A stretch of 32,000 nucleotides of DNA, taken from Haloferax volcanii DS2. GTDB lineage: Archaea; Halobacteriota; Halobacteria; Halobacteriales; Haloferacaceae. The DNA is taken from assembly GCF_000025685.1 (NCBI RefSeq), contig NC_013967.1, positions 1,140,001 to 1,172,000 of the forward strand, in the 5' to 3' direction. Below the pieces are notes generated by a model. The model was not told where the DNA came from. It ran no database searches and was given only the letters and a program-made list of their open reading frames with translations. Position 1 is the stretch's first letter. Each line of letters starts with the position of its first letter. This document shows positions 23,969-32,000 of this stretch, piece by piece. Made by a program: the position numbers and the translations under genes.

Positions 23969-24931
23969 ATGAGTGTCTCACGCCACCCAGTCGCCCTTCG
24001 CCTCGAGCAACAGGTAGGGGGTGCCACCCGACTGCTCGCAACCGTCATGGGGTTGCCCCTCATCGACGGCATCTTCCCCGCGCTCATCATTGCGGGGGCG
24101 CTGACGACCACCGCCGGGAACCCCTCGGTCGCGGGCATTCTCCAGACTGGGCTGCTCATCTTCGGCGGGTCGGCGACGGTCGCGGTCATCCTCGCCGAGA
24201 TGGACGGCACGCGCCGCGAGCAGCTCACGTCCATCCTCCTGCTCGGCGTGCTGCTCATCCCGGTCGCGGTCGCCGAGGCCGCCGTCGCGGAGACCATCGA
24301 GACGCTCCTGAACTTCGAGGTGTTCCACCGCTTCGCCGGCCTCGTCATCCTCGCCGTGGCGGCGAAGACGGCCTCCTCGAAGGTCGGCGAGTACCTCCCG
24401 TCGCCGAGCATCATCATCGGCCTCGGCCTCGTCGCGAGCTTCGAGCCCGCCGGGTTCGAACTCATCGTCACCCCCGACCCGATGCGCCTGCTCAGCGCCG
24501 GCGCGGCGGCCGGCACGGGCGTCGGCTTCGCCGGGGCGGTCGCGCTGTTCGCCCCACGGCTCCGCGGCAACGTCGACATCGACCTCTTCCGCTTCGGAAG
24601 CTCGGTCGCCCTCGGCATGCTGGCGCTCGACGTGCTCGGCCTGATGCCGACGCAGGCGCCCGTCGCCCTCGGCGTCCTCGCCGTCACCGCGCTGTTCGCG
24701 TTCGACCCCGGCTCCGACGGCGCGGACCTCGACGAGTTCGTCGACGACGCCTCCGCCACCGAGTCGGCCACGCCCAACGCTAACGCGAACGGGGCGGTCG
24801 CCGACGGTGGCGACGACGCCGACCCGGCCGACTACGACGCGCTGGTCGACGACGCGAACGAGACCGACGACGACTCCGAACCGGGGTACGGCTATCCCGG
24901 CGAAGAAGAGTCGCGCGCCCCCTGGCTGTAA
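23969..24931 (+). CDS. Conserved haloarchaeal polytopic membrane protein with highly acidic C-terminal tail (320 aa)
   Basis: About 7 hydrophobic helices (GLPLIDGIFPALIIAGAL...), then the tail DDASATESATPNANANGAVADGGDDADPADYDALVDDANETDDDSEPGYGYPGEEE. I do not recognise a function. Confidence 0.8.
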   Translation: MSVSRHPVALRLEQQVGGATRLLATVMGLPLIDGIFPALIIAGALTTTAGNPSVAGILQTGLLIFGGSATVAVILAEMDGTRREQLTSILLLGVLLIPVAVAEAAVAETIETLLNFEVFHRFAGLVILAVAAKTASSKVGEYLPSPSIIIGLGLVASFEPAGFELIVTPDPMRLLSAGAAAGTGVGFAGAVALFAPRLRGNVDIDLFRFGSSVALGMLALDVLGLMPTQAPVALGVLAVTALFAFDPGSDGADLDEFVDDASATESATPNANANGAVADGGDDADPADYDALVDDANETDDDSEPGYGYPGEEESRAPWL

Positions 24932-24973: not shown

Positions 24974-25360
24974 GTGCGACGGACTTTCGATATCCGAACC
25001 GAGCGCCGGCTTCAGGTCGTCGACGTGACCGACGAAGTCGAGGCGGCGCTTCCACGGGGATACGACGGCGTCTGTACGGTTTTCTCGACACACACGACGA
25101 CCGGCGTCTGCGTCAACGAGGCCGAATCGCGGCTGCTCGGCGACATCGAATCGATGCTCACCGAGGTGGTCCCCGACGACGGCTGGGACCACGACGAACT
25201 CGACGGCAACGCCGACTCGCACCTCCGCGCGCTCCTCGTCGGCAACGGCGTCTCGATACCCGTCGTCGACGGCGCTCTCGACCTCGGGCGGTGGCAGTCC
25301 GTCCTCCTCGTGGAGTGCGACGGCCCGCGCACGCGGACCGTGACGGTTGCGACGCCCTGA
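24974..25360 (+). CDS. YjbQ/UPF0047 family protein (secondary thiamine-phosphate synthase-like), 128 aa
   Basis: VVDVTDEV...CTVFSTHTTTGVCVNEAESRLLGDI...DGNADSHLRALLVG...GRWQSVLLVECDGPRTR. GTG start at 24974. Confidence 0.9.
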   Translation: MRRTFDIRTERRLQVVDVTDEVEAALPRGYDGVCTVFSTHTTTGVCVNEAESRLLGDIESMLTEVVPDDGWDHDELDGNADSHLRALLVGNGVSIPVVDGALDLGRWQSVLLVECDGPRTRTVTVATP

Positions 25361-26682: not shown

Positions 26683-27171
26683 ATGGAACTCGTCTCTGTC
26701 GCCGCGCTCGCCGAGAACCGCGTCATCGGCCGCGACGGCGAACTCCCGTGGCCGAGCATCCCCGCCGACAAAAAGCAGTACCGAAGCCGCATCGCCGACG
26801 ACCCGGTCGTCCTCGGCCGGACGACGTTCGAGTCGATGCGCGACGACCTGCCGGGGAGCGCCCAAATCGTCATGAGCCGAAGCGAACGGTCGTTTTCGGT
26901 CGACACCGCCCACCGCGCGGCGAGCGTCGAAGAGGCGGTCGACATCGCGGCGTCGCTGGACGCGGAGACGGCCTACGTCATCGGTGGTGCCGCCATCTAC
27001 GCGCTGTTCCAACCCCACCTCGACCGGATGGTGCTGAGCCGCGTCCCCGGCGAGTACGAAGGCGACACGTACTACCCCGAGTGGGACGCCGCCGAGTGGG
27101 AACTCGACGCCGAGACCGACCACGAGGGCTTTACGCTCCAAGAGTGGGTCCGGTCGGCGTCGTCCAGATAG
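26683..27171 (+). CDS. folA: Dihydrofolate reductase (162 aa)
   Basis: [37 protein letters not shown]...[11 protein letters not shown]...YVIGGAAIY is the DHFR signature. The ATG at 26683 lies inside track ORF 26599..27171, and the T-rich element GATTTTCTC sits about 25 nt upstream. Confidence 0.92.
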
Positions 27172-28623: not shown

Positions 28624-29697
28624 TCAGTCGGCGCCACCAACGATATCGAGCAAAAACGAGCGAACCGTCGCCGCCGTCTCGTCCCACGTCGGGTGCGCGA
28701 GAAAGCGGTCGCGGGCCGAGATAGCGAGCGACTGCAACCGCCGGCGATTCCGACACAGCGGGGCCACGGCGTCGGTGAGTTCGGCCGGGTCGGTCGGGTC
28801 GACGAGGAAGCCGTCTTCGCGGTGCGTGACGAGTTCGCTCGCGCCGCCGGCCGACGAGACGAGCGCCGGGAGGCCGAACCCCATCGCCTCGACCGCGGCG
28901 ATGCCGAACCCCTCGTAGTGGGAGGGGAGCGCGAACAGGTGTGACTCCCGGAGCGTCGCGGCGAGGTCGGCGTCCGAGAGCCGGCCCGCGAACGTCACGC
29001 GGTCGTCGATGCCGCGGGCGACCGCGAGGGCCGAAAGCGAGTCGGCGTAGTCGGCGTCGACCGCCGCGCCGACGACGGTTAGCTTCCAGTCGTCGCGGGC
29101 GCGAGCGAGACCGCGGAGCAGGCCGTCGACGTTCTTCCGCGGTTCGAGGTTGCAGACGGTGACGACGCGGAGCGGCCCATCGGCGGCGCGCGCCCGTATC
29201 TCGTCGTCGTCGAGGGGCGCGCCGAACGACGCAAAGCGGTCGCCGGCGGGGTGCGCCACGACGCTCGGGTCGGGGTCGGTGACGGCCGCGACCGTCCGTT
29301 TCGTCGTCTCGCTGTTGAAGACGAACGCGTCCGCAGAACGGAGATACCGGGTCTCGACGGCGCGTCTGGCGTGTCGTCGCCACGCCCGGAACCGCTCCAG
29401 CGAGTTGAGGTGGTGGACGACGGAGACGACCGGGGTCTCGTCGTCGAGCAGGGCGTTCGCGCCGACGAGCGAGGGGTGACACAGTTCGTCCTGCAAGAGC
29501 ACGTCCACGTCGAGGGCGCGGAGGCGGCGGACGGCGGTGACGTTGTCCCGGAGTCGCTTCCGGTACGGCCGCTCGGGGAGCGAGACGACGGTCACGTCGT
29601 CGCCGGCGGCGCGGAGTCCGCCGACGAGTTCGGAGTCGTAGCGATAGCCGCCGGAGCGGTCGTCGAGCGGGCCGTAGACGACGAGGCCGACACGCAC
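28624..29697 (-). CDS. GT4-family (GT-B) glycosyltransferase, 357 aa
   Basis: C-terminal EGFGIAAVEAMGFGLPALVSSAGGASELV (EX7E motif); N-terminal MRVGLVVYGPLDDRSGGYRY. GTG start, 1 nt after the upstream stop. Confidence 0.9.
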   Translation of the reverse strand: MRVGLVVYGPLDDRSGGYRYDSELVGGLRAAGDDVTVVSLPERPYRKRLRDNVTAVRRLRALDVDVLLQDELCHPSLVGANALLDDETPVVSVVHHLNSLERFRAWRRHARRAVETRYLRSADAFVFNSETTKRTVAAVTDPDPSVVAHPAGDRFASFGAPLDDDEIRARAADGPLRVVTVCNLEPRKNVDGLLRGLARARDDWKLTVVGAAVDADYADSLSALAVARGIDDRVTFAGRLSDADLAATLRESHLFALPSHYEGFGIAAVEAMGFGLPALVSSAGGASELVTHREDGFLVDPTDPAELTDAVAPLCRNRRRLQSLAISARDRFLAHPTWDETAATVRSFLLDIVGGAD

Positions 29698-29698
29698 G

Positions 29699-30076
29699 TC
29701 AGAGCGGAGTCTCGTAGGTCGCGCTCGCCACGTCGTCCTCCCAAACGCGGACGGAGACGTGCTGGGGTGCGTCGAGCGAGGCCGCCTCGACGAACCGCTC
29801 GCACACCTCGCGGGCGAACCGCTCGACGCTCGGGTTCTGCCCCGAGAACTCCACGAGTTCGTTCATCGTCTCGTCGCGATAGCGAGACAGCGTCGCGTCC
29901 AGCGCGGCCTTCACGTCGTCGATGTCGACGAGGTAGCCGTACTCGTCGAGCTCCGGTCCCGACAGTTCGACCTCGACGGTGAACGCGTGAGAGTGTAACT
30001 CACCCTCCGGGCCGGGGTTCGGAACCGTCAGGTGGTGCTGGGCGATGAGGTCCCTGCGAACCGAGACGCGGTACAT
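29699..30076 (-). CDS. 6-pyruvoyl-tetrahydropterin synthase / QueD-fold protein lacking the catalytic Cys (125 aa)
   Basis: Zn-ligand pattern AQHHL ... ELHSH and YLVDIDDVK. The position 4 residues before the HxH motif is Glu (EGELHSH) rather than the Cys of the QueD CxxxHGH motif. Confidence 0.88.
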   Translation of the reverse strand: MYRVSVRRDLIAQHHLTVPNPGPEGELHSHAFTVEVELSGPELDEYGYLVDIDDVKAALDATLSRYRDETMNELVEFSGQNPSVERFAREVCERFVEAASLDAPQHVSVRVWEDDVASATYETPL

Positions 30077-30082
30077 GAACTG

Positions 30083-31081
30083 TCAACAGTTCCGGTACGT
30101 AAAGAGGATTTGGACGGCCTCGTCGGGCGCGTCTTCGAGGAGTCGGTAGGCGCGAGCGGCGGACTCGACGCCGATTCGGTGGGTCACGAGCGGGTCCAGC
30201 GGGAGGTCTTCGAGGTGGTCCCACGCCAGCGAAAAGCGGCGGTCGGCGTCCCAGCGGCCGCGAAGGTCGGGGTCGATGGTGCTGACCTGACTGCTCTCGA
30301 CGCTGATGCGCGAGCGGTGGAACCGCCCGCCGAGGTCGAGGGTGGCTGGCTTGGTGCCGTACCACGACCCGACGACGACCCGGCCGTCGTACCGCGTCAC
30401 CGACAGCGCGTCGTCGAGCGCGTCGGGGTCGCCCGAGAGTTCGAGCGTCAGGTCGGCCCCGTCGGCGGGGGCGTCAAGCGACTCGGGATGGACGGCCTCG
30501 TCGGCGCCGAGGTCCTCGGCGATGGCCCGGCGCTCGGCCACGCAGTCGACCGCGGTCAGACTCCCGAGCGGGAACTGCGCGAGGAGCGCGGTCGTCACGA
30601 GCCCGACGACGCCCTGTCCGAAGACGACGGCGTGCTCACCGATGAGCGGCCGACCGTCCATCACGAAGTTGAGCGCGGTCTCCATCGTCGGCAGGAGCGC
30701 GGCGCGCTCGTCGGTCACGTCGTCGGGGACGGCGATGAGTTCCGAGGGGGACGCGAGAAAGCGGCTCTCGTGGGGGTTGAACGCGAAGACGCGGCTGCCG
30801 AGCCGCGAGTCGGGCACGCCGTCACCGACGGCCTCGATTTCGCCGACGGCGGCGTAGCCGTAGCGGAGCGGAAACGAGAGGTCGCCCTCCAGCGCCGCGA
30901 TTGACTCGTCGGCGGCGAGGTCGGTCGGGGCCTCGCCGCGGTAGACGAGTCGCTCGGTCCCGGAACTCACCGCGGAGGTCAGGGTGCGGACGCGGACCTC
31001 CTCGGGACCGGGCGCTGGCACGTCGCGGTCGCGGACCTCGACGCGTTCGGGGGCCACGAAGTAGACCGCGCGACCCTCCAT
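30083..31081 (-). CDS. Medium-chain (zinc-type) alcohol dehydrogenase/reductase family protein, 332 aa
   Basis: GroES-like N-terminal domain (VRVRTLTSAVSSGTERLVYRGE) and Rossmann motif VVFGQGVVGLV. The start lies 3 nt after the upstream stop. Confidence 0.85.
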   Translation of the reverse strand: MEGRAVYFVAPERVEVRDRDVPAPGPEEVRVRTLTSAVSSGTERLVYRGEAPTDLAADESIAALEGDLSFPLRYGYAAVGEIEAVGDGVPDSRLGSRVFAFNPHESRFLASPSELIAVPDDVTDERAALLPTMETALNFVMDGRPLIGEHAVVFGQGVVGLVTTALLAQFPLGSLTAVDCVAERRAIAEDLGADEAVHPESLDAPADGADLTLELSGDPDALDDALSVTRYDGRVVVGSWYGTKPATLDLGGRFHRSRISVESSQVSTIDPDLRGRWDADRRFSLAWDHLEDLPLDPLVTHRIGVESAARAYRLLEDAPDEAVQILFTYRNC

Positions 31082-31084
31082 CGC

Positions 31085-31870
31085 TCAGTCGTCTGCGGTC
31101 TCGACGGCGGCGTCGGCGTACTCGACGGTCGTGCCGCGGTGGCGACAGTCTTCGAGCGCGTGTTTGGCCGCGAAGCCGGCCTCGTGAGCGTTCGACGCCG
31201 TGCCGACGCCGACTTTGAGTTCCACGTCCGCCTCGGCCTCGACGTGGTCGATTGCGTCGCGGTACTGGTCTTCTGTGAGGTCGGGCGTGACCGAAATGAT
31301 GTTGTCGCCGCCGACGAAGAACGACAGCGCGCCGTGTTCCTCGCGCAGGTGGCGCATGAGCGACGCGTAGCCCTGTTCGATGTGGATGAACGTGTCGAAC
31401 TCGTTGAGGCGGTCGGTGTACTTGCCCGTCGCGTCGTTCACGTCGAAGTGCGCGATTTGGAGATCGGTTCCCGTGCGGTCGGCGTCCGCGAGGGTCTCCC
31501 CGGAGAGCACTTCGCGGCGGTCGCCGTCCTGTGCGCTCCCGACGCGCTGGATGCGGTCGGTGGCGCGTTCGAGCGCGACTGCGGGCGACCGGTCGACGCC
31601 GATGCCGAGACTGAGCGTTACGGGATAGCGGTTCGCGATAGACTCCTGCAGCAGTTCGTGGTCGTCGCGGTCGAGACCGTTGGTGACCGCGACCATGTTG
31701 TCGAATCGGGTGAAAAACGCGTACCCGTCGCGAGAGCCGACGTACTGGGCCAAGTCGGCGAAGAGCCGCGACTGGAGCGTCTGGAGGTCCATCTCCCGCC
31801 GCGGGTCCGGAGTGACCGTCCACGGCCCGTAGTTGTCGATTTGGACGAGTGTCAGCTGCGTATTCGTCAC
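31085..31870 (-). CDS. arfA: GTP cyclohydrolase III (archaeal ArfA type; FAPy-forming), 261 aa
   Basis: LTLVQIDNYGPWTVTPDPRREMDLQTLQSRLFADL is the hallmark N-terminus of the MJ0145-type enzyme. GTG start at 31870. Confidence 0.9.
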   Translation of the reverse strand: MTNTQLTLVQIDNYGPWTVTPDPRREMDLQTLQSRLFADLAQYVGSRDGYAFFTRFDNMVAVTNGLDRDDHELLQESIANRYPVTLSLGIGVDRSPAVALERATDRIQRVGSAQDGDRREVLSGETLADADRTGTDLQIAHFDVNDATGKYTDRLNEFDTFIHIEQGYASLMRHLREEHGALSFFVGGDNIISVTPDLTEDQYRDAIDHVEAEADVELKVGVGTASNAHEAGFAAKHALEDCRHRGTTVEYADAAVETADD

Positions 31871-31940: not shown

Positions 31941-32000
31941 TCAGCCGCCCGACTCCCGGAGCGTCCGGCTGGCGACCACGTCGAGGACCGCCCACGTCGC
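31941..32000 (-). CDS. C-terminal 19 codons of an unidentified gene running off the window
   Basis: The minus frame ...ATWAVLDVVASRTLRESGG ends in a stop at 31943..31941 and is GC3-rich. It is too short to identify. Confidence 0.3.
   Translation of the reverse strand, partial: ATWAVLDVVASRTLRESGG

Follow-up and report, generated by a model that had tools for sequence, protein, structure and literature searches.

An ArfA operon of Haloferax volcanii is a variant of the PTPS-IV gene cluster and may branch from riboflavin and F420 synthesis

RESULTS

A four-gene operon around a COG0720 protein

Four minus-strand genes lie near the end of a 32,000-nucleotide stretch of the Haloferax volcanii DS2 genome (NC_013967.1, positions 1,140,001 to 1,172,000; this whole stretch is referred to here as the window). 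They encode a GTP cyclohydrolase (GCH) III, a medium-chain dehydrogenase/reductase (MDR), a small protein of the 6-pyruvoyltetrahydropterin synthase (PTPS) family COG0720, and a GT4 glycosyltransferase, and we refer to these genes and their recurrent partners as the module. The open reading frames (ORFs) and the gaps of 3, 6, and 1 nt between them were reproduced exactly as described in the original prediction, which had been made from the sequence, and the family models listed in Table 1 agree with the four identities that it proposed. The genome has five replicons, of 2,847,757, 635,786, 437,906, 85,092, and 6,359 bp. We conclude that the operon is a variant of PTPS-IV, a published but functionally unsolved gene cluster, and is not a folate bypass.

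Table 1. Coordinates of the operon and of adjacent features in the window
Feature	Position	Strand	Details
GTP cyclohydrolase III (ArfA)	31085..31870	-	261 aa; NF002587, 410 bits (cut-off 306); PF05165
Predicted zinc-free MDR-superfamily oxidoreductase (BchC-like)	30083..31081	-	332 aa; PF00107
COG0720 T-fold protein, putative SCO6650/PTPS-IV group	29699..30076	-	125 aa; PF01242
Active-site motif ExxxHxH (Glu24, His28, His30) of the COG0720 protein	29987..30007	-	Register set against QueD Cys27
Third zinc His (His14) of the COG0720 protein	30035-30037	-	
GT4 glycosyltransferase, module-specific, optional	28624..29697	-	357 aa; PF00534
Small hydrophobic ORF, 3' end in window	31941..32000, continues to 32222	-	~86-93 aa
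Dihydrofolate reductase (HdrA-like)	26683-27171	Opposite to operon	End lies 1.45 kb from GT4 gene

The COG0720 protein is closest to SCO6650

The COG0720 protein carries the motif EGELHSH, with Glu24 four residues ahead of His28. Alignment puts Glu24 in register with Cys27 of E. coli QueD, so the observation that Glu replaces Cys four residues before the HxH motif is borne out; Glu is present at this position (-4) in 43 of 43 haloarchaeal and 78 of 80 other homologues. Residues H14, E24, H30, N72, P82, and E85 were scored as invariant in the PTPS homologues. Published signatures are CxxxHGH for QueD, CxxxxxHGH for PTPS-II, and ExxHGH for PTPS-III (PMC5041015). QueD (PTPS-I) was rejected because the protein has no Cys, scores 42.6 against a TIGR03367 cut-off of 89, and is not the only candidate in the genome, which has a separate, true QueD (CSRPHGH) at C1:1588190, immediately before a QueE-like gene; PTPS-II was rejected because neither Cys nor HGH occurs in the motif region. 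The proposal of a PTPS-III, or Plasmodium-type, enzyme did not survive either, given that the motif is ExxxHxH, not ExxHGH, and that Glu at -3 and HGH are both absent from all 123 homologues (43 haloarchaeal, 80 other).

A profile built from 63 homologues and searched against the PDB gave SCO6650 (3D7J) as the top match (1.5e-18), with QueD at ~1e-12 and Plasmodium PTPS at ~1e-6; an ordinary QueD with an alternative Cys, which had been considered beforehand, does not describe this protein. The predicted model (pLDDT 96) superimposes on SCO6650 with a TM-score of 0.93 and a root mean square deviation of 1.6. The reported PTPS-IV signature is FGPAQ (PMC5445326). This sequence is found in SCO6650, whereas the Haloferax protein has PGPEG at the same place, and SCO6650-type proteins are without Glu24 and His30. 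On this evidence, the Haloferax protein is a PTPS-IV-type subtype with three zinc His and a Glu replacing Cys, a term that we prefer to strict PTPS-IV membership because the FGPAQ signature is absent. Chloroflexota, Deltaproteobacteria, and other archaea also have members of the Glu/three-His subtype. A 2012 study of COG0720 by Phillips reportedly treated this H. volcanii gene as PTPS-IV.

MDR and GT4 proteins

The best NCBIfam match of the MDR was to BchC, below cut-off. Its catalytic Zn ligands are replaced, with SSGTE for CGSD and YGYA for GHEF, and the Ser and Tyr-Ala at these positions are kept across 45 orthologues. A zinc-dependent MDR alcohol dehydrogenase was therefore rejected, since the Cys and His-Glu ligands are absent, and the operon MDR is predicted to be zinc free. 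An Asp after the Rossmann strand suggests that it probably uses NAD(H). The GT4 protein gave only generic matches, all below the cut-offs of specific families.

Four partners form a conserved core with an optional glycosyltransferase

We surveyed 295 haloarchaeal genomes, 177 of them PTPS positive and 118 PTPS negative; absence in these and the following genome counts means that the gene was not found with the query used. The MDR was detected at 1e-60 in 165 of the 177 PTPS-positive genomes and in 0 of the 118 negative ones. A looser threshold recovered 11 of the 12 exceptions, bringing the total to 176 of 177, so the apparent loss was a threshold artifact in all but one case. A panel of 40 PTPS-positive and 40 PTPS-negative genomes, in which 20 genera contribute to both groups, was used for the other partners. 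A methyltransferase was found in 40/40 positive versus 0/40 negative genomes, a CDP-alcohol phosphotransferase in 38/40 versus 1/40, and a GT4 orthologue in 30/40 versus 0/40. Where GT4 is absent, the methyltransferase gene directly follows the PTPS gene. The methyltransferase and the phosphotransferase are tighter partners of the PTPS gene than GT4, which is the most dispensable part of the module. On the panel and MDR counts, PTPS-IV, MDR, methyltransferase, and phosphotransferase form the core; glycosylation is optional.

Gene order supports the same grouping. Forty loci from further haloarchaeal genera were screened up to 8 kb from the PTPS gene; they contained the MDR (36 loci), methyltransferase (34), phosphotransferase (28), GT4 (25), ArfA (16), and dihydrofolate reductase (0). 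With the MDR inside this range in 36 of 40, the linkage is not due to chance. The operon is conserved in other haloarchaea, with GT4 as the optional member. In 80 mostly Chloroflexota loci, the counts were 70 for GT4, 56 for MDR, 47 for methyltransferase, 43 for RibD, 40 for RibA, and 22 for phosphotransferase, and the order MDR-PTPS-GT4-methyltransferase, with RibD, RibA, phosphotransferase, or LPG-synthase-like genes, was also seen in Proteobacteria and Actinobacteria. The H. volcanii orthologues of the methyltransferase (C1:1036448-1037335) and phosphotransferase (C1:1037336-1038220) form a convergent pair (C1:1036448-1038220) that precedes the operon by ~130 kb. This unlinked phosphotransferase has a complete CDP-alcohol motif, DxxDGxxAR-x8-GxxxDxxxD. 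The methyltransferase model gave generic class I matches, the best being histamine N-methyltransferase with a TM-score of 0.62, which is too weak for a substrate assignment.

Membrane proteins, both DUF7475 and LPG-synthase-like, recur in the clusters. DUF7475, a small membrane protein, was found with the module in 24 of 40 haloarchaeal and 29 of 80 other loci (for example, L039:11897-12265), and an unlinked homologue is present in this genome (C1:392050-392394). Neither a GCH I gene nor a cytidylyltransferase was seen among the recurring neighbors of the module.

Several further genes were noted around the module. A 665-aa fusion of Gfo/Idh/MocA and aldo-keto reductase domains lies beside it in 14 of 40 haloarchaeal loci (e.g., L043:10448-12442), and the search of the H. 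volcanii genome gave no full-length orthologue of the fusion. PAP2 phosphatase and YdjM-like membrane genes are recurrent neighbors in a minority of the haloarchaeal loci (L054:10504-11064, L051:10453-11004, and L070:3949-4482). On a plasmid of Haloarcula marismortui ATCC 43049 (hits H9 and H10), the PTPS match is split in two and corresponds to no annotated gene, which may reflect a frameshift.

The cyclohydrolase is functionally linked to the module

The GCH III gene is the only copy in this genome, and we take it to be HVO_1284 (arfA). Deletion of HVO_1284 leads to riboflavin auxotrophy (PMC8305020, Table 6); the source cited there is the 2012 COG0720 study, which suggests that the locus had already been studied in that work. 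A tree of 38 ArfA sequences contains a separate paralogue clade (support 100/100) in which 9 of 9 members are module linked; in the three genomes checked, this paralogue is present in addition to an unlinked housekeeping gene. Housekeeping ArfA copies are themselves module linked at several separate positions in the tree. Two ArfA copies are found in 30 of 177 PTPS-positive versus 6 of 118 PTPS-negative genomes. Bacterial copies of the module have GCH II, with normal zinc cysteines and the KxRAY tyrosine, and a RibD-family reductase (RibD-C) in place of ArfA. GCH II is fused to the module MDR in two archaeal metagenome-assembled genomes (L089:7260-8990 and L090:7067-8803; 577 and 579 aa, with TIGR00505 above cut-off). 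Taken together, the paralogue clade, the repeated housekeeping linkage, the bacterial GCH II/RibD-C pair, and the fusions indicate that the link between cyclohydrolase and module is functional. What the variants have in common as input is thus the diamino-pyrimidinone nucleotide that follows either type of cyclohydrolase, or the ribityl compound obtained by its reduction. In H. volcanii, a single RibD-C gene and five genes of the creatininase family could supply it.

Some related loci deserve mention. One creatininase-family gene lies ~1.1 kb from mptD (C1:446090-448173; L083, L189), and a second is found at C1:1126141, the expected location of the proposed arfB candidate. Four genomes of one genus (G091, G105, G162, and G172) contain cofG, and GCH III was not found in them. 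A Natrarchaeobaculum plasmid locus (L076:7216-9542) encodes a paralogue-type ArfA, an MDR, a hypothetical protein, and a flippase; the PTPS gene is not in the locus. PF00925 is the GCH II family, in agreement with the RibA genes seen in module loci. PF00925 and RibD_C both belong to the published PTPS-IV neighborhood, where PF00925 is labeled FolE2/GCH I (PMC5445326).

No gap for a folate bypass

The original prediction proposed that the COG0720 protein bypasses dihydroneopterin aldolase in folate synthesis, and suggested a check for folB and mptD. FolB was not found in this genome, while the archaeal aldolase MptD and MptA are both encoded, so there is no gap for a folate bypass to fill. The nearby dihydrofolate reductase gene (folA), cited as a clue, is indeed at about the stated distance of ~1.5 kb, and its supposed meaning was lost: it lies on the opposite strand, and it adjoins the operon in 5 of 5 other Haloferax genomes, compared with 0 of 40 loci outside the genus. 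We therefore ruled out folA linkage as a functional clue, since the synteny is confined to Haloferax. A PTPS-III folate bypass was rejected on three counts, namely, the absence of ExxHGH, the presence of MptD and MptA, and the lack of folate-gene context beyond Haloferax.

Neighboring genes

The small hydrophobic ORF lies on the same strand as arfA, 70 nt upstream of it, and is possibly the first gene of the operon transcript; among the other loci tested, just one has a homologue ahead of arfA. Just past the window end and divergent from arfA is a gene for a HAD-IIA phosphatase (L001:6274-7056, + strand), which lies close to arfA in 10 of the 14 loci of this family. We regard the enzyme as a candidate for the absent riboflavin-pathway phosphatase EC 3.1.3.104, which has been listed among the pathway gaps (PMC8305020). 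At the other end of the operon, a major facilitator superfamily (MFS) transporter gene sits between the dihydrofolate reductase and GT4 genes. Farther away, a multipass membrane protein with an acidic low-complexity tail is encoded at 23969-24931 (+), followed by a small gene (24974-25360), which we take to be YjbQ-like.

DISCUSSION

A proposed branch from riboflavin and F420 synthesis

We tentatively propose, in a judgment that falls just short of even, that the operon comprises four parts of a six-part system that branches off riboflavin/F420 synthesis to a different product. That the branch is a dedicated one, serving neither folate nor core flavin synthesis, we hold with good confidence. 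The chance that the product is lipid linked we put at even, and formation of a pterin ring at slightly below that; the entire scheme, as written here, is unlikely to be right in every step. The original suggestion that the dehydrogenase and glycosyltransferase imply an unusual pterin route or a decorated metabolite holds in part: a decorated GTP-derived metabolite fits best, and the accompanying folate reading does not.

In the first step, established for the family and for this gene, ArfA opens GTP to a formylamino-pyrimidinone nucleotide. Housekeeping ArfB-type and ArfC enzymes would then yield 2,5-diamino-6-ribitylamino-pyrimidinone 5'-phosphate, the putative branch point; bacterial copies of the module bring their own GCH II and a reductase-only RibD-C. 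From the chemistry, the NAD-linked MDR may oxidize the ribityl 2'-OH in step 3. The resulting ketone would be the Amadori intermediate of GCH I and could close with the 5-amino group to give 7,8-dihydroneopterin 3'-phosphate. In step 4, the T-fold enzyme, with Zn and Glu24, might promote ring closure, trim the side chain in a PTPS-III-like manner, or both. Step 5 would be methylation of the ring or side chain; a methyl group on the sugar is unlikely because the methyltransferase persists in genomes without GT4. Finally, the phosphotransferase would join the head group to CDP-archaeol, and GT4 would attach a sugar in roughly three of every four strains. We favor CDP-archaeol as the simplest donor because the phosphotransferase motif is intact and no cytidylyltransferase is among the recurring neighbors, and the recurrent DUF7475 and LPG-synthase-like membrane genes fit an envelope product.

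Several points weigh against this proposal. Steps 3 to 6 rest on gene context and chemical analogy, and SCO6650-type members of the same cluster are without Glu24 and His30, so a Zn/Glu aldolase chemistry cannot be common to all members. The phosphotransferase scores below every curated subfamily cut-off and was not found in 2 of the 40 PTPS-positive genomes. Related genomes are not independent, a concern lessened by the within-genus contrasts, and a p-value calculated from the genome survey is overstated. A review also places PTPS-IV in F420 synthesis, on the basis of unpublished data (PMC5041015).

Alternative explanations

The same branch might instead lead to a soluble methylated pterin or pyrimidine glycoside of the cyanopterin kind, with the phosphotransferase making a soluble phosphodiester or having a parallel role. 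We consider this unlikely, though it accounts for much: GT4 and the methyltransferase match the make-up of cyanopterin (PMC9737128), an enzyme with Glu in place of Cys could produce 6-hydroxymethylpterin, and some loci hold only MDR-PTPS-GT4. However, the 10 of 40 PTPS-positive genomes without a detected GT4 all keep the methyltransferase, so that glycosylation is not part of the core; the phosphotransferase tracks the module even where it is unlinked; and the recurrent membrane proteins, together with the lack of a recurring cytidylyltransferase, fit a soluble product poorly.

A route without a pterin ring is less probable still. Here the T-fold protein would bind or cleave the diaminopyrimidinone, and the product would be a monocyclic ribityl-pyrimidine or a polyol or amino-polyol head group derived from it. 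The SCO6650-type members, which share the cluster without the Cys/Glu and one His, are consistent with this idea, as is the absence of a recurrent GCH I gene, and the conserved Glu113, by inference from T-fold enzymes, would recognize the edge of any 2-amino-4-oxo-pyrimidine. On the other hand, the Haloferax subtype retains the full three-His site and the Glu across very divergent homologues, and reduction followed by oxidation would be a direct chemical path to a pterin.

PTPS-IV and its partners could also have an auxiliary or repair function in making F420 or riboflavin, as the operon shared with the essential arfA and the review cited above would suggest. We regard this as improbable, because cofG is present in 295 of 295 and arfA in 291 of 295 haloarchaeal genomes, whereas the patchy PTPS gene is found in only 177 of 295, a distribution incompatible with any general riboflavin or F420 step. 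In addition, we know of no place for the methyltransferase, GT4, or CDP-alcohol phosphotransferase in known F420 or flavin chemistry.

That arfA is a bystander beside an unrelated three-gene module seems highly improbable; the housekeeping arfA does lie elsewhere in most haloarchaea, and arfA is nearby in only 16 of 40 loci, but the module-linked paralogue clade, the repeated linkage of the housekeeping copy, the bacterial GCH II, and the GCH II-MDR fusions all speak against coincidence. Least credible is a PTPS-III-type folate bypass, for which the Glu at the catalytic Cys position, the undetected FolB, and the nearby folA could be cited, against the lack of ExxHGH, the presence of MptD and MptA, a dihydrofolate reductase neighborhood that is Haloferax limited and convergent, and the position of Plasmodium PTPS far below SCO6650 by profile and fold.

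Significance

PTPS-IV is a named enzyme group whose function has been unsettled for over a decade; in the literature searched, we found no functional description or product for these genes or this gene combination, and no description of a pterin-headed lipid class. The present work adds the ArfA-fed Glu/three-His variant, a ranking that separates obligatory from optional partners, the evidence from the ArfA paralogue and the GCH II-MDR fusions, and a genetically tractable archaeon in which every part has been located. Co-distribution identifies the complete set of partners and directs the search to the lipid fraction. We would call it a long shot that haloarchaea and several bacterial phyla make a pterin without GCH I and use it, methylated and optionally glycosylated, as a membrane-lipid head group. 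If true, a lipid-linked pterin would represent a new class of lipids, with its pterin ring made by a new route; even if it is false, the present analysis corrects the common "QueD/queuosine" annotation of these genes.

Comparison with known systems

QueD shares the fold, the three-His site, and the Pfam family with the Haloferax protein, which differs in having no Cys and in the replacement of the Asp70 and His71 positions. PTPS-III has the T-fold, the zinc histidines, and Glu for Cys in common with it, and a similar side-chain cleavage is possible; the two differ in motif (ExxxHxH versus ExxHGH), with a structural identity of 13-14%, and the Haloferax type has no folate gene context outside Haloferax and coexists with MptD.

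Cyanopterin is an O-methyl-glucuronyl-galactoside of 6-hydroxymethylpterin (PMC9737128). The cyanopterin (PgtA) and huimycin-type clusters resemble the Haloferax-type module in combining a GTP-derived heterocycle with a methyltransferase and a glycosyltransferase, but they start from GCH I, and the glycosyltransferase is optional in the Haloferax-type module. Huimycin clusters also need QueE and QueC, and to our knowledge neither kind of cluster uses a CDP-alcohol phosphotransferase. With the ArfA/ArfB/ArfC route, the operon shares its first gene, a bona fide ArfA that very likely supplies both routes; the MDR, PTPS, and GT4 genes, in contrast, play no part in that pathway and have a patchy distribution.

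The closest relative is the SCO6650/PTPS-IV cluster. The Haloferax module differs from it in having PGPEG rather than FGPAQ, as well as the third His and Glu24; in being fed by ArfA, not GCH II, with no RibD-C paralogue in the locus; and in its unlinked methyltransferase and phosphotransferase. Both have a riboflavin-type cyclohydrolase in their neighborhood, ArfA here and GCH II with RibD-C in about half of the 80 loci. They also share the gene order MDR-PTPS-GT4-methyltransferase, and SCO6650 is the top match by profile and fold, aligning without gaps across 100 residues.

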